Notes under the pieces: model-generated
What the model saw: only the letters and a program-made list of their open reading frames with translations
What the model was told of the DNA's origin: nothing
Database searches by the model: none
Shown: one piece after another, positions 13,758-45,049 of the stretch
Layout of the letters: each line of letters starts with the position of its first letter
Numbering within the stretch: the stretch's first letter is position 1
Origin: Sphagnum compactum
Lineage: Eukaryota
Direction: 5' to 3'
Assembly: GCA_965153455.1 (NCBI GenBank)
Contig: OZ234494.1
Location: forward strand, 1,612,001 to 1,676,000
Length of the DNA: 64,000 nt
Made by a program: the position numbers and the translations under genes

Positions 13758-16700
13758 TTAGGTTGTCTGGTGAGAAAGTTGGAAGAGATCTAGAGCTAGA
13801 AAGTCTCTAGAATTAGAGCTTGAGAGTCTTTAATATTATCATAGGATTTTGTCAAGTGCAAAAGAGAAACGGGAAAAGGAAAGAATGTGAAGAAAAAGAA
13901 AAGAAAAAAAAAGGTGAAAGGATATTAACATATCAAAGGTTGTGGAAGTCAAATCTTTAAATCTAGATCTAGATCTACTGTGAAAAGATCTTGGAGTGAA
14001 ACCTAAAGAGATAAGAGAAGATTATAAAACACTTTTATTCTCAACTTTTCAAAAGAAAAGGATATGTTTTGTGAGAGTTATGAGCTTTTGAAAACTTTGT
14101 GCCAGATCTGGTTCTTTGGTCATATCTCATTTTTTTGAGTTTTTTTGGATCTATAACTTTGGGATCTTATAGATCATAAAGGAATACATATGTGAGAAAT
14201 TTCATGTCATTTAGATATGTATTGAGAGAGATCCAAGTATTTAAAGTTTCAGCCTCAATTTTGAAGTTAGTTTCTTTTGAAAGTGATAACTATTTGTGGT
14301 CATCAGCAATAGAGCTGAAATTTTGATCAAATATAAAAGAAATATATTTAATGTGTCTCTCAAAATCTCAAGGAGTTTGGAGTTGCTGAGAGCGAGTTGT
14401 AAGTCATTTTGTGTTCAGGTCCCAGTTTGAGGTGATTTCAAGAAAGTAGCAAGATCTCTCATTTTATGAAATTAAATGAGCTGACATTTTGAGAGATGGT
14501 AGTAGACATAGTTTTTCATGTTTCACCAAAATTTCAGAACGATCCAAGGTCATATGTGAGCGAACAGTTTTGCAAAGTTGCTGTGGCAAAAGTTTACATT
14601 GAGAAGACATCAAAACGAATTTTGAAGTGGAGTGAATACAATTTGGGAGAACTTGAAGGAAGGGCTTTGAAGATTGGGAAGCGCAAATACATTATCAAAA
14701 CCTTCATACAAAAGTTTGGTACGTAATCATGTACTTAATACCATACAAAATATTATAAGAGATACGTACACATACGTAAAACCTATGTATAGTATAAAAT
14801 TTCGTATAATATTCAAGACGTACATACATATGCAAGGTCCATCTTATTTAGCCATAACCCTAACCTTAATCCTAGAAACCTAAGGAAGGAAGACCCTAAT
14901 CCTAATCCTAGAAACCCAAGGAAAGAAATAAAATATTTTGTGAAACCCCAAGAAGACATTGAGAGTTGTCTTGAGAGATGGTGGACGGTCTTTCTCAAAT
15001 TGCAATTAAGAAATTAGACAAAAACAATTTCCAAGTGTGGAAATTTAGGATTATGAATTTTTTGATGGGGAAAGGTTATTGGGAGTTCATAACTGGTGAT
15101 GAGAAAAAACCTCCTCTCCCAGAAAACCCCACATAACAACAAATTCAAACCAATAAAACTTGATTTGAAAAAGTAAGGAAAGTCTTGTATTGGCTTTCTA
15201 TGAGTGTGTCTGATTCCATGATTGTGCATATTCAAGATGCACAATCACCCAAGCAAGCTTGGGATACATTAGTGAAGATGTATAACACCAATATATAAGC
15301 GCGCAAAATGTAGCTCAAACAAGAGTTGCATAGTTTATAAAAAAACAAGATGAACATCAATGACTATTCTACAAAGGTGAAAAACCTTGCAGATGCTCTT
15401 GCATCTATAGGAGCCCCAGTAGATGATGAAGATCTAGTGGCCGTGACCTTGAATGGACTTGGAAAAGACTATAGTTAGTTCCGTACTTCAATTGCAATTC
15501 GAAAAACATTTCCCGATTTCTAAGACTTGATAACCTTACTTATAAATGAAGAGATGAGAATTGTTGGCACTTTATCCAATGGCGGATCACAAGAAAATGT
15601 TTTCTATTCAAATACTAATAGAGGTAGAGGTAGAGGTGGTAAAACTTCATTTCGAGGTCGACACGGAAGCTCGCATGGTGGACATCATCAACATGAAGGT
15701 CAACCTCATGGAGGTGGACGAAAAAACTTTGGAGGAAGAGGAAGTTGCGAAAGTCGTGGAGGTCGTGGTGGAGGTCATCGAGGTCAACAACCAAATAATG
15801 ACTCAAACTACTACTACTACGAGAAACCTGAGCACATGGCAAAGAATTGTTATCAAAGGGAGCATGATGCATGAAATGGAAAGCTGTAACAAGGGAATTA
15901 TGCATCAACTAGCAATCAAGGTGATGAGCAACTATTTGTGATGCAGCACATGGCAAATTCAATGATAGGAGGTGTATTAGATAACAATGTCTGGTATGTG
16001 GATTCTAGAGCTTCAAACCACATGACTAATCATGGATAATGGTTTAGAGACACAAGGGATTTGAAAACACCAGGGTTTGTGAAAAGTAGTGATGACACTA
16101 CACATCCCATCACACAAATTAGAAAGGTGCCATTGTTCATGCAAGATGGGCAAACAAAGTATTTGAAAGATGTACTTCATGTTCCAACCATAACAAAAAA
16201 TTTGGTCTTCGTAGGCCAGATGGTGGAACAAGGTTTACAGGTGACATTCAACCCTAATGGATGTTTTGTGGAAGACATGAAGAACGAAGGCAAATTGATT
16301 GCAAAAGGGGAAAGGAATGGACAAATGTTCACCTTGGATGTGAACATGCCTGAGGTGAATTCCATGTTATTCACACATGGAAAAGGAGCTAGAGACATTG
16401 GAATTTGGCACAAGCGGGTTGGCCATGTTAATCTCCAACATCTTAAGTTGATGGATAAACAAAATCTTGTTGGAGGTCTTCCCAAATTTGGAACAGAAAA
16501 AGTGATGTCAAAAGTTTGTGAAGCATGCCAATTGGGGAAGCAAGCTAGGCATCCATTCCCAGATCAAACAATTCATGTGAGTTCCAAACCTTTGGAAATG
16601 ATCCACTCAGATGTGTGGACCACAAAGACAGAATCCACTGGAGGATGCAAGTACTACGTGAATTTCATTGATGACCACACAAGGAAGGCGTGGGTCTACT

Positions 16701-18507
16701 TCATGAAACACAAAGGTGAAGTGTTTCAACATTTTTTGAATTTCAAAGCAATGGTGGAGAAGGAGAAAGGTGTGAGCATCAAATGCTTAAGGTCCGATGG
16801 AGGGGGAGAGTATTTTTCAAATGACTGTAGTGAATACTTGAAGGAGCATGGAATTCAAAGGAAGTACTCATGTAGTTACTCCCCACAGCAAAATGGAGTT
16901 GTTGAAAGGAAGAACAGGCACATTGCAGAAATAGCACGTGCCATGTTGAATGAGAAAAATTTGCCAAATTACTTTTGGGCTGAAGCGGTAGCAACTACAG
17001 TCTATATCATGAATCGAACACCCACAGCGGCAGTTCATGGCATGACACCTGAAGAAAAATTCACAGGCAAAAAACCAGATGTCTCACACCTCAGAGTGTT
17101 TGGTTGCATTGCATACGTGCATGTTCCTGACGAGAAGAGATCAAAACTAGACCCAAAAGCTGAGAAGTGTATCTTCATTGGATATTTTTTAGAACAAAAA
17201 TGATATGGATGCTTCAACCCTTCCACTCGAAGGTTGCAAATGAGTAGAGATGTTGTGTTTGATGAGATGGTTAGCTGGTACTCACCACTGAAGATAGTAG
17301 ATGGAGAGGCTAGAAATGGTGATGTTTCATCAAATGTGGAACAAGAATCATAATTAATTAGTGGACCACAAGAGTCTTCAATTAGTGGGTCCAATAGCAC
17401 TCCATGGAAAGGAAAATTAAGATTTTCAAACATTGTACATGGTAGTTCTCAAACATCATCTAGAAATTTCCATGTAGATGGTGAGTCAAGTGATTTAGAG
17501 AAGAGTGTGGGTGAAGAATCAAAAATCCCTTCAGTTACTACTCCTGAAGCTCGGATGGCCAAGAAAACTTTGAAAACACCTGACAACAACAATGGAGTAC
17601 GAAGATCCACACGGTCAAGTACCCTGTACAAAGACTGACATATGATGGCTTTGTAGCTCATCATTACGCATACATGGTGAGAGTTATACAGGAGGTTGAA
17701 CCCACTTGTTTCGAACAGGCGGTTGGAAACCCTAAATGGGATAATGCCATGGATGAAGAGATGACGACATTGGATGCTAATGCTACTTGGGAATTGGTAG
17801 CTTAACCAAAGGAAAAGAAAGTAATTGGGTGCAAATGGGTGTACAAAGTCAAGCACAATGTAGATGGATCTGTGAACAGATACAAAGCAAGATTGGTTAC
17901 CAAAGGTTATGCCCAAACTTATGGCATAGACTATGAGGAGAGCTATAGTCCGGTTGCCAAAATGACAACTGTAAGAGCAATCGTTACTATGGCAACAGCA
18001 AATGGATGTAAAGAATGTTTTTCTTCATGTAGATTTACAGGAAGAGGTGTACATGGAACAACCACCAGGTTATGTTGACCAAACACATCCTAATTTGGTT
18101 TGTAGGTTGAAGAAAACTTTGTACGGCTTGAAACAAGCACCTAGAGCTTGGTTAGACAAGATAGGTCAATATCTTGTCATAAGTGGATTTCAAACATCCA
18201 ATGCAGATTTTTCACTATATGTGAAAAAGATAGATCATGGGATTGTAGTCATAGTCATCTATGTTGATGATTTGATTATCACAGGAGATAGTGATGTAGA
18301 TATCTTTGATTTGAAGAAGCTTTTGAAGCAAAAGTTTGAAATGAAGGATTTGGGAGAATTGCGTTACTTCCTCGGCATTGAGGTAATCTAGTCTCCTAAA
18401 AGGATATGGTTACTACAAAGGCAATATGCCTTGAACAAATTGTCCGAATATGGGATGACGAGTTGTAAACCCATTTCAATTCCATTCGAGCAAAATGTGA
18501 AGTTAAG

Positions 18508-25029: not shown

Positions 25030-28000
25030 ATTTTTCTTGTTGTTATCAATGATAATCCTTGGACCAAGCAGTGTGAAGAGTAGCAATTTTGATGTCTACT
25101 TGGCCCCTGTGTTTGAGGAGCTTATTGAATTATGGAAGGGGGTGAGGGCTGTGGATGTATTGCAACTTGTCAGAAGGAGGGAATTTACCATGAGGGCAGT
25201 CTTAATGTGGACAATCCACGATTTTCCTGCTTATGGGATAGTTTTTGGTTGCCAACACCAAGGTTATAGAGCATGCCCTCCATGTGGCATTGCTATAGTC
25301 AGCCAGTCCAAAGAACTTAGGAAACCAATTTTTTAGGGAAGTCGGAGGGGGTTGCGGAGAAACTACCCACATAGAACACATCCAAATGCAAAGCACTTTG
25401 ATGGCAAAGAGGAGGTGCGGGGGAGGCCTAAAACAACAACTACTATTGAAACATTAAGGTGAGCATAAATGATTGAAGACTGGGTGGCACCAGGTAATGT
25501 TCTGGGGCAAAGGGGTGCCCATCATAGAAAACTAGGGTGAAGCGCTGGTTAGCCCTATTTCAACTTCCGTACTAGGATGTGAGTCACACAATCGATAATA
25601 TATTTGACAAGTAGGCCAGTCATCACAAAGGAGGTACATGAAGTGTTACAATATGAAGCATATAACTATTGTTGGATGCAAATGATAATATTGTAGCTAG
25701 ATAACGTCAAAACTTTAAAAGATCTACTATCATACAAAAGGGAATTTGGTAACCTAGTTCTCAGAGTTCGAGAATAGAGTATGTTGGCAAAGGAAAGGTT
25801 ATGTCAAATCATTCTCATAACCGAGCTCAAAAATATATTCTACTACCATAAGAAAAAAAATCTTATCATTATTTTTTAGAACTATAATACAAATTCTACT
25901 ACTATAAGAGATTAGATTATTTGAACATTTTGTTTTGAGACCTCTGCTACAAGTTTTGTTGTAAGAAAAAAGACCATATCTTGTCATTTTTTTTTGAGTT
26001 TGGTTACAAGGTCTATTGCTAGATTAGAAGGAATTATCTAATAATTATGCTTTCAAAGCTCGGGTATCTATTTTGCCCATAGATGGGCTATCCAATTTAA
26101 CACTCTATTTGCATAACTTTACTTCAAATTGTCATGCCTGGAGAAGAGAGAATTTAAGGTTGATTTTGTACCTTTTAGAATTTGAAGAACATTAGTATTA
26201 ATTTTATGGTGGAAGAAGTTCAAAATGTGTAATGGCTAAAGTATAGATTCTATATAGCCACAATGGTTTTTCAGAAGCTTTCATGGTTGGTCAAAATCAT
26301 TCAATTCCTAACGTGGCATTAATTAGAAAGAGGATGAAAATTGGGTTTGTTGTGTTTCCTTCTTTTTGATTGTAAGTTATATATGCCTTGCAACTAAACC
26401 ATGTTTTCTCCATCTAACCATACTGGTGTCCCATTTGCAGCAATTACTGACCTGACACACACTAGATGTGATGCACATTGAAAAAAACATTTGTGAAAGC
26501 TTGATCAAGTTCATAATTGGAGCAAAAGACACCATCAAGGTGCAGCGTGACATGGAGGTTTGCAGCATTCGAGAGGACTTGTGGCTGAAACGAAATCCAC
26601 GTAGACCAGGGAAGATATTCAAACCCATTGCTTCATATGTCGTACTGCCATAAAAGTTGAAAACATTCCTATCCAGATTGAAGAGCTTGAAAGTGCCATA
26701 AGAATATTGTGGTTCAATAGGAAAACATATTATGGAAAAAAAACTAGGGTCAATGAAAAGCCATGACTGGCACATGTTGATGCAACAATTAATGCCATTA
26801 GGGTTGAGGGGATTAATGTAACCCCATGTTCGGTTAGCTTTGATCTGGCTCACTAGAGTTTTCTGTAGCATATGTGCGAAAGTTTGGGATCCAAGAGACT
26901 TTCAAGCATTAAGAATGATGTGGCAACCACGCTTAGCTTACTGGAATGGGAATTGCCTGCTACGTTTTTTGACATTATGACACATCTAACCTTACATATG
27001 GTAGAAGAGTTGGATGTTTGTGGACTTGTACATGCCAGGTGGATGTACCCTATTGAACGAGCATTGAAGATGTTCAAAACCTATGTAAGGAATAGGGCCC
27101 GCCCAAAGGCATCCATGGCTGAAGGGTATTATTATGATGAAACCATTGGGTTTATCACAGAATACATGCAAGATTTTTCAAATGTTTGGCATCGGATATG
27201 GGATGCAAACGAAGAAGAGGGGGTATGCAATGAAGTGTTGGAAGGTGCAGGAATCAAATTTATTCTTGATAATGGGTGTTGGGATTTGGCACATCAGTGT
27301 GTGCTCACGAATGCGAGTTGCATGGCACCATGCGTCCGGTAGTTTTACCTAACCCTAATGCCATCTTCAAAATTAATAGTAAGCATGACAATGTAGTATG
27401 CTAATGTAGCCACCAAGTAGAATCTAACATGAGAAGGAATGCAGGAAGCATGAGGAGGAGCAAGCCCGAGTGAACAACCTACGAGCAAAATTTTAGTTAC
27501 ATTGGCAAAGAGATGCTTCAACAACTGGCACAACCATATAATTTCCAGATAAACTTTCAGAAGTCACAAAGTTGGCCACTTGGGTACAAGCTGTTGTCCG
27601 GAACCACATTGCAGATGGTGGTAGGATTGAAGACATGGATGTTATGCAACTTTCAATGAAGCAACAAATGACTGTTTCAAGGTATGCAAAAGTTAGGGTG
27701 TACGATAATCATTATAGGGTTACTGTAGACAATGAAGCCACAATAATGGCCACATATGATTCTGGGGTTGCATCTATATTCCAGCAGCCACAAGCAACAA
27801 ATGAAGGCATGACACTTAGCTCCATCCAATATGTGGGTGTACTAAAGGACATAATCTTGTTAAATTACGGACCAGTGTCTCAACCAGTGGTACTCTTCAA
27901 ATGTGATTGGGTTACACCTGGGTCTGATAGGTGGGGGAATCCAACGTATAGATAGGATGAAAATGGATTTTTGCTTGCAAATTTCTGCAACTTGAAAGCG

Positions 28001-30361: not shown

Positions 30362-32100
30362 GGACAAATAAGCAAATCACCTACTTAAATTGGAAGCACA
30401 AAAGGGCACTTGGCGCTTGCACACAAACTCGTCGCTTTCCATTCAATCATGGGTTTGTGCTCATCCTAATGATGTTTTTTATTTCCAAGATGCAGGTGAG
30501 GTGAATGGGATTCATGTCCCTTTCACCATAAGGATCCAGACACCTATATAGTTTCAGGCCATGTTCCAATTTAGTCAGAACGGGTTTATTTCTATGGATG
30601 CCATGTTTGGCACCAATGATGTGAAGTACCACTTATCCACATTGATGGTATTTGGTTTTCATTGCATAGGGGTGCTAGTTGCTTGGGTTATCACGAGTCG
30701 GCAAACATGTGAAAACTTGGTGGAGTGGTTGAGTGCCATGCGGGCAAAGCTTCTCTTGCATATGCCAAGTAGGAGACCATCATGTTTCATTGTGGATGAT
30801 GCCCCACAAGCACTTTGAACATTGTGATAGGATGTACATTGATTTTTTATTTTTTGTTGCATTGCCTTATGTTTTGGTATTACGTTAGCATGGGGATCCC
30901 ATAACATATTTATTGTTCATGGTAAGGGCCATGGTAAGCACACTAATTTTGGTTGTACCATGGCAAGATTGTGTGAGGTCGAGATCTTGTCCCAATTTTT
31001 TTTTGCGCATGACATGTGTTGAAAACATGGCATTTGCATTCCATGGAAAAAATCAAGGATTCAAATGTTAAGCGTGTAGTACTTGATTGCCTCCACATGG
31101 TGATGTTCATGACCATCAACCCAGATGAGACCATTGATGATTTCAAGGCACGTGAGAGGGAGATGGTGGTGGAGAGTTTTGATAACTTACAACATGGCGT
31201 TGCTTCGAAAAGATACTTTTGGGCTTATTATTGCCAACTCGGTAAGTAAAGGGTCCCCTCTCCAAGTATGGCATAATTTAAAACCTTTTTGCTATGGATG
31301 CATTACATGGATGCATGTTCATTATTTCACACATATTCGAGTTACATCATGGATTGAAAGTATGTTGTGCATGTCCATGCAAAGCTTTGGATGGTTGGGC
31401 TTAATTAGGTCCCACACTCAAATCAAAACACAAGCTAGCATGGAGTCTTATCACTGGGCTTTGAAACATTGGTTTTTTCTTGAGACCAAAGGTTTGAAGG
31501 GGTGCTATATTGACTGGTTAATGTGGAGGCTAACCACAATTGTAACACGATATTATATGCACCAAGCCAAGATGAAGAGGCAAGGGTTCATAAAAAAAAG
31601 GTCATGGCACAACTTGTGGTGGCAAGTGTTGACAAAGTTAGTTGGACTCCACACACTAATGTGATTTCACCTACCTTTTAGGGGGATGATGGTGGTGATG
31701 TTTGGCGAGTGCGGAGCCAACACCATCTTGGTGTTACTTACAAGATTCGTGCCCCTTTCATCAGATATGCAAGTTGTATTTGCGAATGGGCATTGTGAAG
31801 TAGTTTTTGCAAGCATCAAATTATTGTTCTATTAATGTGTATTGACCTTATAATAGAGAATATCATTGAGTATTGTGGCACGTATTATGGAACTCACCGT
31901 GGTGGTTTGAAATGCATGTTTGCTAATTCGGCATACTTACAATTGGATGATGGTGCATCCAATGATGAGGATTGCAACCGAAATCCGATCGATGAGATCA
32001 ACATTGTTGACATTGGGGAGCTTATGGCCATGGATGAGGATAGTTGTTTTGACAATGTCGATGTGCCAGAAGGTTCGTCCACACCCATGGATTGAGCCCT
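30362..32100 (+). pseudogene. Decayed MULE-domain, SWIM zinc-finger transposase
   Basis: SIQSWV..HPNDVFYFQ..IQT..SMDAMFGTNDVKYHLSTLMVF..VAWVI..CFIVDDA; TQASMESYH..LK; SWIM CICEW...FCKH at about 31775-31820. Stops and frameshifts, with probable short introns. Confidence 0.85.
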
Positions 32101-40353: not shown

Positions 40354-40710
40354 CTCTCAGACAATCTTTTGGTACTCTAACTATGAATATGCTTTAAAAA
40401 ATGAATGAAAAGAAAAGTACAATTGATTTTTAGAATTGGAATTTTATTGTTATAAGAATTGAACCCTAGACCAAGTTCCCGGCTCTATTTATGTTATAAA
40501 ACCAAAACTAGAACTGAAATACATGTCTTTGAAAAACAAGGAACTAGAACCAGGGGTTAATTGATAGTCAACCAAGTTAACCATCGATTTGATCCACGGT
40601 AGTAAGAACCAGACTGAAACCCGTGTGATTTCAAAACCAGAATTGAAATCAAAATAATTTTTTTATATTTTATAACCAAGCCCAGAACCAAATTCCCAAT
40701 TCGATGTATA

Positions 40711-41163
40711 CTAGTGTGGCCTGTGCTGTTGGCCCAAGTGTTACCATGTCCTCAACTGATTTTTCCTTTCAAAACCTGGTTTTTTGGAATTTATTTGAAT
40801 TTTCAGCGGCAGAAATCACTTAAAAATCAATATTTCCCACATTTTGAATCCAAATCTTACCAAATAAATTCCATTAAATCCTGCTCATCAAGATCTTTCC
40901 AACAACACCAAAGGCACATTTCAGTTCTTCTAAATTTTCAGCTACGGTTTAATTTAATTTTCAATGAAGAAATCATTCAATATTCAAGAACTTTTGCACA
41001 TCAAGTCCAAACGCCATGGAACCAAGCCCATGCACCCCTTCTCGTAGAGAGCTTTCCAAAGACACCAAGAACACGATCTGAAGCATCCCAGTTGGGTGGA
41101 TCTCATAACTACAATACAAAACGAAACAAACAAACTACCTTCCTTCATTCCTTCATAGATAGA
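40711..41163 (-). mobile_element. Non-autonomous Helitron
   Basis: On the minus strand it starts TC (TCTATCTATGAAGG) and ends with a GC-rich sub-terminal GGGCCAACAGCACAGGCC then CTAG. Inserted at an A|T dinucleotide (40710/41164) with no TSD, splitting a GAACC-rich host repeat. Confidence 0.75.
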
Positions 41164-42092
41164 TGTGGAAAGGAAACCAGAACTGAGGCACTTTTAATTT
41201 ATTTCTTAGAACTGGAACCAAAGGCTCTTCATAAAATAAACCTTGAACCACCCAATACTGGTTGCAAGGTTGCAATTGTATACAAATTTGTTACTATTTA
41301 TTTGTATACTAGCTTAGTATACTATGAGAATAATGTGTTAAAAACTCCTTGTAATTTGCATGTCTTTTGCATGCATCATGTAGCTACTAGTTGGCTAAAG
41401 CAACTCTTTTTAAAAAAAATCAGTCACTGATTTGAACCAATTTATCATCAAGCTAGGTCACCTTTTTTCTTTGTACCTAGGCACCAAGTCTATGACACTA
41501 ACACCAATTCACTCAAGTTAACTCCTCAAACGGGTTTCAAGGCTCTCATTCTAACAATCTCATTGGCTTTATACGCTTTTATATTCACCCCTGGACACAA
41601 GCCTATTCCACAGTCAGTCAGGATCATTCCATCCAAAATTACAAGAAGGAACTAACAACCTGCCTGAGACAGGAAAGACAGAAAAGCAACTTAACAAGTG
41701 AAATCAGTTAGATTAAACGTTGGAAAGAGGCAGTTGATGGAGTGTAATGGGCTAGTGAAAAAGAAACTTCCAGACTTTCTTGCCTGCAGCTGACTAGTAG
41801 GCTGGAAAAATAGTTTAAAAGAAGAGGGAAACTATTATTCTAACCAAAGTCTCCGTCAGTCTCTTGTAGTTCATCATTCCTCTCCTTATTCTCTGTCCCA
41901 GCTCCCCCTGCTATCTACCTGATGTTCTCCAACGAAGCAGCAGCTTAGGAGCGAGACTAGTTCAGTTTTTTGCAATATTGTTCCATTGCAGCTCCATGCA
42001 TGCAGCCGGCTGCTGCTGCTTTGTACACATGATTATTGTATTAGCAGTGTTGTTGTTTGCAGCCATGGCCACTGTCTTTTCGTCACTGTAGC

Positions 42093-42329
42093 TAGTACTA
42101 CCACTGATCATGGGGTTGGGCAGCTGCTAGCTAGTACTGATCCAAGTCTTGAACTTTTGTATTGAAGGAGCTGCTGGCCGTGCTCTTTGGCTGGTGACCC
42201 ACAACTAGCCGCAAATATATTAGTACTATAACTGATCATGGGTTGGGCAGCATCTAGCTAGTACTGATCCAAGTCGTGAACTTTGTATTGAAGGAGCTTC
42301 TGGCCGTGCTCTTTAGCAACCAGCCGCAA
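42093..42329. repeat. Diverged ~128-bp tandem duplication upstream of MIR171
   Basis: TAGTACTA..ACTGATCATGGG..CTAGCTAGTACTGATCCAAGTC.TGAACTTT.TATTGAAGGAGCT.CTGGCCGTGCTCTTT at 42093 and 42221. Confidence 0.9.
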
Positions 42330-42949
42330 TATTCGCCTAGCTAGTTTTGCATCGTATATATCCTGCTGGTACTACTGCTAGCATTGCGCATGCACGGCGC
42401 GTTTGCAGCAAGCTGTGTTATACCGTTAGACAGACGAATGTTAGGCTCTGCTCGTGGCTTACCAACCTCAGCATCCTGTCGAAAAATGCTAGGTTAAAAG
42501 CTTTTTGCTGAGCCAAACCGGCATGTTTTGACTTTTGTTCATCGAATTTTCTTTTGCTGGGCCACATTATACTGAGCACTGGTCCAGGAGTTGCTGTAAT
42601 ATTGTTGTACTTCTAGGTAAATCAGTTGAGTGCTGTTCAGAAACTATCAGGGTGAACTTGGCGTTAAGCAGCAGAAATAACGCACATTAAGAACGAGTTT
42701 CCTGTAGTGACAAGAAGTCTAGCAGGGCTGCCGGAGAAACTTCGGATGATGATAGGTTTTTTCCGAAATGCAGGAAGTAAAAACCGTGATCGGAGCATGA
42801 AGAGAGCTTGATCAATTTAGTCCCCGGAGGTGATCATGATCGAAGTTGTCTCTGGTCGATTGGTGAAAGGATTTTTCTCTCAGCGTGGCAGAGGTTTCGC
42901 AACACAGTTCGAGAAGAAGAGGGAGGGGCAAGCTGGCCAATTATTAATG

Positions 42950-43058
42950 GAGGGTAGGTCTTCGGCATGTGATATTGGCGGTGCTCAATCCGATGACCAT
43001 GCTAGAGCGTGGCGTTGCCCTCAGATTGAGCCGCGTCAATATCACATCCTGCGTTCTC
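42950..43058 (+). ncRNA. MIR171: miR171-family microRNA precursor (mature 3p about 43026-43046, star 5p about 42970-42990)
   Basis: 3' arm GATTGAGCCGCGTCAATATCACAT matches the conserved miR171/170 sequence. It pairs with 5' arm ATGTGATATTGGCGGTGCTCAATC (2 mismatches, 1 G:U). A short inner stem CCATGC/GCGTGG closes the loop. Confidence 0.93.
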
Positions 43059-45049
43059 ACTACTATTTCTAATCCCAATTCTCAGGAGCCTGATCAGTTA
43101 TTATTTTGTACTGCAGTGCTTCTAGCCTTCTAGAGTGTATATACAAACCAGTTTGATGCGCGCACTAGGAGAAAACTTAAAAGACTGTCTTGCTTGCTTT
43201 CGAGCATGACAACTCTTATCGATGCAGAGTTGCGAATAATGTCTGTTTGTTCTGGACTGAGTGAGTTCTGGAGATGCCAGATACAGGCCAGAGTTGCGCT
43301 AACGTGATCTCTTGTCTAACATTTCTAATGGGTTTATGAGCAAGTCCTGACTGCAGTTTTGAAAATGCAGCGCATCATGTCCTAACTGTAATGAGTTCAT
43401 CATGTTATTCAGCTTCGTGCATGGCAGGAAATACAAGCTGCTCCAGTCGAGCACATGAGCAGTTGAGGACGTGTTTGTGATTGTTTCGTGTGCATGTACA
43501 TGCGCAGATCCTTGGAAATAAGCGTCTCCCAGTCATTGCACCGCAAAAATTGTTTTAATCATCCAAAAGCAACTGGATCATCTTCCGCGCATTATGAGCA
43601 GATCAAGCAGCTTGAAACGCATGTTCCTCGATCGTGTTGCAATGAGTTAGTGTTGCTCATTCCCACTGCATTACATGAAATGTAGTCTGATGAATCAGCT
43701 GATCATCAAGGAACATGCTCTACTTGAGAGTTCTCATGCGTTCGTGGAACATGCTCTAGTTCACACTCTTCTTTCCTCTCAACTACTGACAGTCCAGAAC
43801 TACTAGCCAGGGCGAGAAGCTAGCAGGAACGTCGGATAACATCAAGGTCTGTCTGTCCGACTCTGGGATGGCAGATTATCTTATTTCTTGCATTATATGA
43901 CACAACCTTCCTGTAATGATCATACAGTGCTAAAGACCTGCCAAAAAAACTTTAGTCATGTATTGGGACCGCATGTTCTACACAGAAATTTGACTTCTGA
44001 GAAATGGCAAGGCATTTCATTTTATGGAGGTATCTCCCCTTTTTCCCAATGGGATCTTCTGGTTACCGGAGGTATCTTCCATCTTGTTGCAAATTTCAGC
44101 AGATCCTTACATGGGTTAAGGTCCTTAGTTCAGGGCATTACCAAAAGTGGGTGCACCCCAGCATCTACCACTTTGCACTGCTCCTTCTTTTGGTAATGCC
44201 CTCAACCTGGGGCCTTACCCCATACATAAAAGTGACCAAAATCCTGTGTTTCAAACATAAATATTTTTTGAAATTGTTGAATCTGCCATCCCAGACCTTA
44301 ATGTCATGGAATGGTCTGGCCCAGCTTGCCCTGGAGTGGCCTGGCATGTTTCCATAGTAAAAAAGCTGTTGAATTATCTCTTCACTGCCACTCAATTAAG
44401 CGACCGGTTTCATGAAACCCAAATTAAACCTTTACTTGGTATCTAGAGTTTCAGCCCCAACTTCTGAACTTTTTTCCAACGGTCTTGTCTTTTGAACCAG
44501 CTCAGTTCGTTTTAGGTCTCAAACTGGTACTCAAACTGAGTTATACAGTGTTTTTTGGGGTCAATTTTGTGATGTAGGCAAAGTGGTGATCATCCATAAG
44601 AAGATTTAGCCAAATTTGACTTAAAATGATCTATGACAATAAAAACGTTTAAGTTGTTCATCTACGTATTTGCCTACTTACCAGAACCAAACATAGAAAT
44701 CTGATGATTTTTATTAAAAATTTCTTGATTTTTGACTAGTGAAAACTCTAAGAATCATTTCATGAATCTTTTTCATTTTTTCATTTTAATTTCACTTTTT
44801 AATGAAATCTCGCCAGTTTTTTAAAATGCCAGGAACTCGTATCTAATATAGATCACAGCCAAAGCTGGCCCAGAGCATAAGACCCTAATAAACTGAAAAC
44901 TAGAAACCACATATAATTCAGTTAGATGTCCATATCTAACTGGTTGTGAACAATGACACCAGATTGTATAGGATGCTTATAGTTTTACTCCTTCCTTTCT
45001 ATGTGGAATCAGATTTAAGCTCAGGCACATGACCACCCTAAGCCATCCA

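Follow-up and report, generated by a model that had tools for sequence, protein, structure and literature searches.

A MIR171-family hairpin was confirmed on the plus strand of the window, the whole 64-kb stretch of DNA that was analysed. The locus is a further member of the well-known, ancient miR171 family of plants. Its predicted mature strand differs from the cloned Physcomitrella miR171 by a C-to-U change at position 11 (U11) and is otherwise identical, with 20 of the 21 bases shared. On the strength of sequence comparison and duplex modelling, the locus is probably a conventional moss MIR171 gene, the U11 product of which would guide slicing of HAM/SCL6-type GRAS mRNAs. The result adds a correctly placed MIR171 locus to a moss genome at a point where ORF-based annotation sees nothing. 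Beyond annotation, the locus matters little; the anatomy given by an earlier sequence-only reading was right, but its sense of novelty was wrong.

Anatomy of the hairpin and its genomic setting

The fold that the sequence-only reading had proposed as a check was run on 42940-43070, and the RNA formed one long hairpin with an MFE of -54.9 kcal/mol. The 200 dinucleotide-preserving shuffles that served as the control had a mean of -35.7 kcal/mol (sd 3.5), which corresponds to a z-score of -5.46, and none of the 200 equalled the energy of the native sequence. Independently of the fold test, the whole window was searched with the covariance models of Rfam (64 kb, both strands, 4227 families). RF00643 MIR171_1 was the sole match above the gathering score, and the alignment covered the full length of the model (positions 1-101 of 101). 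The match scored 52.8 bits with an E-value of 3.7e-07, and thus lies above the curated gathering score of 48 that serves as the criterion for a MIR171 precursor. The hairpin described earlier at 42950-43058 was therefore reproduced by the letters, the fold and the Rfam match alike. Its assignment to the MIR171 family is borne out by the same match and fold, and also by the consensus fold of the moss hairpins and the Rfam scores of the relatives reported below.

In the MFE fold, the predicted mature strand (UUGAGCCGCGUCAAUAUCACA) is paired with 42968-42988, so that a star strand at 42970-42990 (UGAUAUUGGCGGUGCUCAAUC) leaves 2-nt 3' overhangs at both ends. This pairing agrees with the mature and star positions and the overhang geometry that had been proposed from the letters. 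The duplex is free of bulges; its irregularities are one G:U pair and, at mature positions 7-8, a single 2x2 internal loop, which is symmetric. A 2-nt internal loop is typical of the MIR171 family and falls at the same place in the window hairpin. Below the duplex, the predicted fold pairs 42950-42958 with 43048-43057 and leaves 42959-42966 as an 8-nt bulge. Under general annotation criteria, a plant miRNA gene yields the 21-nt miRNA and miRNA* as precise species in small-RNA libraries. As for structure, the plant miRNA criteria of Axtell and Meyers of 2018 reportedly call for 2-nt 3' overhangs in the duplex, a low number of mismatches and the absence of large asymmetric bulges, and the window duplex, with its 2-nt overhangs, one 2x2 loop and one G:U pair, has this structure. 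The conserved GAGCCG and CAAUAU blocks, which an excerpt of PMC10340099 places in the 3'-arm mature strand of MIR171, were both present in the predicted mature strand. The coordinates of the features are listed in Table 1.

Table 1. Features of the window (positions 1 to 64,000) and contig loci, other than MIR171 hairpins, with T at the base corresponding to position 11
Feature	Location	Strand	Basis or remark
Copia-type element, broken, with integrase and RVT_2 out of frame with each other	16040-18388		Pol_BBD, gag_pre-integrs, rve, SH3_retrovirus, RVT_2
CACTA-type transposase fragments	25031-27952		Transposase_21, DUF4218, weak DUF4216
MULE transposase fragment	30552-30815		weak match
Conservation island against the 96%-identical L064	42936..43087	+	1 difference observed, ~5.8 expected
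Entire stem, with the short lower stem beneath the duplex	42950..43057	+	predicted fold
MIR171 precursor hairpin (extent of Rfam MIR171_1)	42961..43055	+	covariance match and MFE
Predicted miR171*, 5' arm, 21 nt	42970..42990	+	2-nt 3' overhangs against 43026-43046
Predicted mature miR171, 3' arm, 21 nt, 5' U	43026..43046	+	pairing, overhangs, Physcomitrella register
Mature position 11, T (U)	43036	+	pairs with G 42978 in the stem; C in two moss paralogues and Physcomitrella
Non-hairpin T-bearing loci, CGCGTC	L003, L016, L021, L046, L086, L095, L101, L104		among the matches listed
Non-hairpin T-bearing loci, CGTGTC	L012, L013, L048, L068, L072, L079, L092		among the matches listed

The protein-coding content of the window was assessed by scanning 162 of its 189 stop-to-stop ORFs of at least 62 aa against Pfam. 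As a result, transposon families only were matched, namely rve, RVT_2, gag_pre-integrs, SH3_retrovirus, Pol_BBD, Transposase_21, DUF4218, DUF4216 and MULE. This accords with the earlier description of the window as dominated by transposable elements, with the hairpin as its only evident host gene. For the longest ORF near the hairpin (40618-41427, plus strand, 270 aa), no Pfam family was found. Its 324 unnamed homologues are 50-84% identical to it across roughly half of its length. Such a profile marks a multi-copy element, not a host gene, and the family is probably carried by a transposon.

An inverted repeat that arose by chance or from a transposon and merely resembles miR171 would suit such repeat-rich surroundings, but this explanation retains hardly any probability. 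The E-value of the covariance match and the identity of 20 of the 21 mature positions with a cloned moss miR171 both argue against it, as do the paralogues described below, whose identity is 74-78% and in which only the two arms and the structure are conserved. The hairpin sequence is, in addition, present in a single copy within the 64-kb window. On these grounds, a chance or transposon-derived repeat was effectively refuted.

A tandem direct duplication of about 99 bases with 91% identity (42093-42191 and 42221-42317) was observed about 700 bases upstream of the hairpin. The same duplication is present in L064, a contig locus of a close relative that is described in the next section.

Related loci in metagenome contigs

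Metagenome contigs were scanned with an 18-base core of the mature strand in which positions 9 and 11 were left open (C or T), and at least 120 loci were obtained, the first of which were listed as L001-L120. L064 (96.2% identity over 2019 bases) and L083 (95.9% identity over 617 bases) each represent the same locus in a close relative. Both carry T at position 11, and the sole difference in the hairpin lies in the terminal loop. This base, 43009, is the only difference between the window and L064 in 42936-43087, compared with 77 differences in 2008 bases overall, and it is likewise the only difference from L083 between 42936 and 43112; some 6-7 differences would be expected in these intervals. 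The Poisson tails for the depletion of differences were ~0.02 and ~0.006; since the interval was picked post hoc and the two relatives are mutually dependent, the island is only suggestive of local sequence constraint on the hairpin. A 6-base insertion at 42935/42936 was found in L064, in L083 and in the contig of metatranscriptome X3, exactly at the foot of the conserved island, and it marks the 5' limit of the constraint.

Two diverged paralogues were also recovered, L093 with 74% identity over 227 bases and L001 (identical to L018) with 78% identity over 96 bases. In both, the conservation relative to the window is confined to the two arms. They carry C at position 11 (C11), and their mature strands are identical to the Physcomitrella clone at 21 of 21 positions. 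One assembly prefix is common to L093 and L064, and another is common to L001 and L083. This distribution fits at least three MIR171 loci in one genome, which by inference would make up a three-member MIR171 family with one U11 and two C11 copies. Alternatively, two moss species may have been present in one sample.

Eleven loci were tested against Rfam, of which five were from moss and six, flowering-plant-like, carried T at the position-11 base; all 11 reached the gathering score of MIR171_1. In the consensus fold of the five moss hairpins, 35 pairs were kept. The consensus pair 24:85, which corresponds to position 11, is G:U in three of the sequences and G:C in two. The two central pairs of each moss hairpin in this consensus include one wobble and no more. 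It is formed by G10 with a U of the star arm in the C11 loci, and by U11 with a G of the star arm in the U11 locus, where the star base opposite G10 is C.

Position 11 of the mature strand and the GRAS target site

The Physcomitrella miR171 (small RNA 4-72) was cloned by Fattash et al. in 2007, and an excerpt of that paper describes it as detected in protonema and represented by two genomic traces (PMC1838911). The C at position 11 that the sequence-only reading had given for Physcomitrium agrees with this clone, as printed in the same excerpt. The mature strand of the window resembles small RNA 4-72 in its length, register, 5' U and 3' end, and differs from it in carrying U11 in place of C11. 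The presence of C11 in both the moss paralogues and Physcomitrella points to C as the ancestral moss state at this position.

The sequence-only reading had taken U11 to be unusual and the mark of a special paralogue, a view that did not hold up. The exact 21-mer of the window was unmatched in a full-text literature search, which covers printed text and not miRNA databases, and its 16-base core with the U was printed in 54 papers. Among excerpts of the literature naming both Sphagnum and miR171, no description of a Sphagnum miR171 was found. In cassava, mes-miR171a carries U11 in the same register, with 2656 reads, and an excerpt of PMC4730657 lists it together with C11 and U9 sisters against Scarecrow transcription-factor loci. 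As printed there, its first 17 bases, including U11, are those of the window strand, from which it differs at the 3' end (positions 18-21). The same U is found in rice osa-miR171i, in a register shifted by three (excerpt of PMC2292181). As the cassava and rice isoforms are products of flowering-plant genes, the U of the moss locus most likely arose independently. A C-to-U change beside the slicing site, kept as a wobble in both the hairpin and the target duplex, would thus have recurred independently in mosses and flowering plants.

The frequency of such changes was estimated from the contig loci. With a cut at a duplex energy of <= -24 kcal/mol, 59 of the 120 loci among the matches listed were hairpin-like, a coarse split, since the energies do not fall into two cleanly separated modes. 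U at position 9 (U9) was present in 35 of these, C at both positions in 17 and U11 in 7. By a second, stricter criterion, under which at least 15 of the 21 positions had to be paired, 63 distinct folding loci were obtained from the matches listed and the window, including L048 and L104, which are probably chance folds. U11 pairs with a G of the star arm in all eight MIR171 U11 hairpins that were folded among the matches listed, the window included. U9, the commonest variant among the matches listed, pairs with the same GRAS site as a G:U wobble at position 9. C-to-U transitions beside the slicing site that are tolerated as wobbles are, on the sequences compared, the rule in the miR171 family.

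A G:U pair in the two central pairs (positions 10 and 11) was observed in 34 of the 63 folding loci from the matches listed and the window. It was located at position 10 in 25 loci, at position 11 in eight, and at position 10 with a U:A pair at position 11 in one, the probable chance fold L104. The central wobble seems to shift between the arms and not to be removed.

Many of the scanned loci were not hairpins; instead, the complementary site lay inside long ORFs encoding ...ILARLN(H/Q).... A GRAS domain was detected in four of the five site-bearing ORFs scanned, and in these the site lies where the domain begins. L009 is a moss GRAS gene with the canonical site (Pfam GRAS, E = 2.3e-108), and among its named relatives those of Ceratodon (60%), Physcomitrium (56%) and Sphagnum troendelagicum (50%) come closest. 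On this site, the U11 strand forms Watson-Crick pairs at positions 1-10 and 12-18, a wobble at position 11 and mismatches at positions 19 and 21. The predicted duplex energy was -32.7 kcal/mol for U11 versus -35.4 kcal/mol for C11, a predicted loss of 2.7 kcal/mol (~8%), and the standard penalty score was 3.0 versus 2.0. A G:U pair next to the cleavage site is usually tolerated, as the family data above also suggest. Weaker cleavage by the U11 form is plausible, with a small modelled effect of 2.7 of ~35 kcal/mol.

Opposite position 11 stands the first base of the Ala codon in ILARLN, where a matched A would encode Thr. As long as Ala is kept, therefore, a G stands opposite position 11 and U11 makes a G:U wobble. 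Two clusters of Sphagnum HAM-like proteins, with 71 and 51 members, were compared at this site; their named members are from S. troendelagicum, S. jensenii and S. magellanicum. Among the listed members holding the site, ILARLNQ was found in 13 of 13 in cluster 1 and in 14 of 15 in cluster 2. The Ala codon was kept in all 28 (27 of them ILARLNQ), and none of these 28 listed members showed a Thr variant. At the protein level, then, the coding site at which miR171 pairs with HAM is conserved letter for letter in Sphagnum. Should the host be a Sphagnum, its U11 strand would meet a G:U wobble on both Sphagnum HAM paralogues. The earlier statement that U11 places a G:U wobble at the slicing site of canonical GRAS targets was thus upheld by the pairing on L009 and by the Ala retained in the 28 listed proteins.

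The accompanying suggestion that the paralogue prefers a different GRAS subset was left without support, since no GRAS-like ORF site with A opposite U11 was found among the at least 120 loci listed from a degenerate scan that permitted A. Outside MIR171 hairpins, T at the position-11 base occurred, among the matches listed, only in GC-rich loci or in ORFs that are not GRAS-like (Table 1). L013, the only one of these T-bearing non-hairpin loci scanned against Pfam, matched no family. In the excerpted part of a preprint, 97% of the high-evidence targets of miR170/171 are HAM genes, and the overlapping miR170/171 binding sites are without nucleotide variation across 20 dicot homologues. These data fit an invariant target that is served by slightly varying guides.

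A single deviation from the motif was noted in P0012, the representative of cluster 2, which reads ISARLNQ at residue 641 with Ala retained, where 14 of the 15 listed members have Leu. The change sits in the codon facing miRNA positions 12-14 and may be an allele or an error.

In the proposed mechanism, the locus would be transcribed by RNA polymerase II, as expected from the family, and a DCL1-type enzyme would cut the hairpin to release the predicted 21-nt duplex. The 5'-U strand of the 3' arm would be loaded into an AGO1-type protein, and the loaded miR171 would guide slicing of HAM/SCL6-type GRAS mRNAs at the site encoding ILARLNQ. The C-to-U transition at position 11 would keep the stem paired as U:G and, on the conserved target, would place a G:U wobble next to the scissile bond at the slight predicted cost in stability given above. 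Since its two C11 sister loci were found alongside it in the same metagenome assemblies, the U11 copy most likely represents a redundant isoform, slightly weaker than its sisters, rather than a specialised regulator.

A specialised isoform would be either a poor slicer that binds HAM sites and tunes or shields them against the C11 forms, or a guide matched to an A-bearing target. The U is kept in the window, L064 and L083, three copies that have diverged slightly, and the co-occurring canonical C11 paralogues would permit a division of labour. Nevertheless, specialisation of this kind is very unlikely. G:U is a pair and not a mismatch, and its predicted cost is 2.7 of 35.4 kcal/mol. Among the hairpin-like loci in the matches listed, a wobble-forming U beside the slicing site is frequent, as U9 (35 of 59) or as U11 (7 of 59). 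The abundant U11 miR171a of cassava is listed with Scarecrow genes in the same way as its C11 sisters (excerpt of PMC4730657). The A-bearing target likewise finds no counterpart among the GRAS sites listed, nor among the 28 listed Sphagnum HAM-like proteins, all of which keep Ala.

A related case is Medicago truncatula miR171b, which excerpts of reviews citing Couzigou et al. describe as the 'protective' miRNA of LOM1 (PMC10340099, PMC13667248). Like miR171b as portrayed in those excerpts, the U11 form pairs imperfectly at the HAM/LOM cleavage site alongside canonical family members. Unlike miR171b, for which they report a mismatch that prevents down-regulation, it forms a G:U wobble of small predicted cost. 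A protective mismatch of the miR171b type was not found on the L009 site, where position 11 is a wobble flanked by Watson-Crick pairs at positions 1-10 and 12-18. That U11 represents a deliberately weakened peat-moss miR171, which would shield or buffer HAM mRNAs from the two C11 paralogues as an independent counterpart of miR171b, has only a slim chance of being correct, smaller still than that of specialisation in general. If U11 did act as such a non-slicing competitor, it would offer new insight into how miRNA families tune one target.

RNA coverage of the locus and its flanks

Of 24 listed sequencing runs containing parts of the window, 16 are metatranscriptomes labelled as moss or plant metagenome. 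In the poly(A) RNA-seq run X24, which bears the same species label and of which about 12% was read, zero reads were found across 42648-43943. In the metatranscriptomes X1, X3 and X4, contigs covered the hairpin at a depth of 2-8. The coverage was patchy, of similar depth across 2.4 kb and on both strands, and may stem from primary transcript or from DNA carried over. Where the contigs differ from the window, they do so in the manner of L083 (43009, 43113, 43193, 43203 and 43297). The hairpin-spanning contigs of X1 and X4 have two differences each, both accounted for by 43009 and 43113, which leaves T as the most likely base at 43036 in these contigs.

A decaying or silent MIR171 duplicate stranded among transposons, in which U11 would be neutral, is unlikely, though somewhat less so than a specialised isoform. 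It would be in keeping with the zero poly(A) reads of X24 on the hairpin, with transposon families as the only protein families found in the 64 kb, and with the two intact C11 paralogues, which could carry the function. Primary miRNA transcripts are, however, normally rare in poly(A) libraries, and the zero count comes from ~12% of the run. The stem remains fully intact; its score exceeds the Rfam gathering score, and it folds as well as those of the paralogues (-59.0 kcal/mol versus -59.4 and -62.5 kcal/mol, 150 nt each). Moreover, there is one substitution, in the loop, in 152-177 bases, compared with a divergence of ~4% in the flanks. The intact and locally conserved stem thus disfavours a silent duplicate, and a conventional MIR171 gene is preferred.

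Two short segments near the hairpin showed a separate pattern of coverage. In the three metatranscriptomes, the depth was 834-1302 at 42486-42566 and 117-218 at 44268-44348. In the poly(A) run, it was 42 and 31 at 42486-42566 (first mate on the plus and minus strands, respectively) and 16 and 1.5 at 44268-44348, and all the X24 reads at these segments lay only partly on the window. At 42486-42566, the loose read ends on both sides ran into several different sequences. Each segment is unrepeated within the window, and both look like a short dispersed repeat carried by many transcripts.
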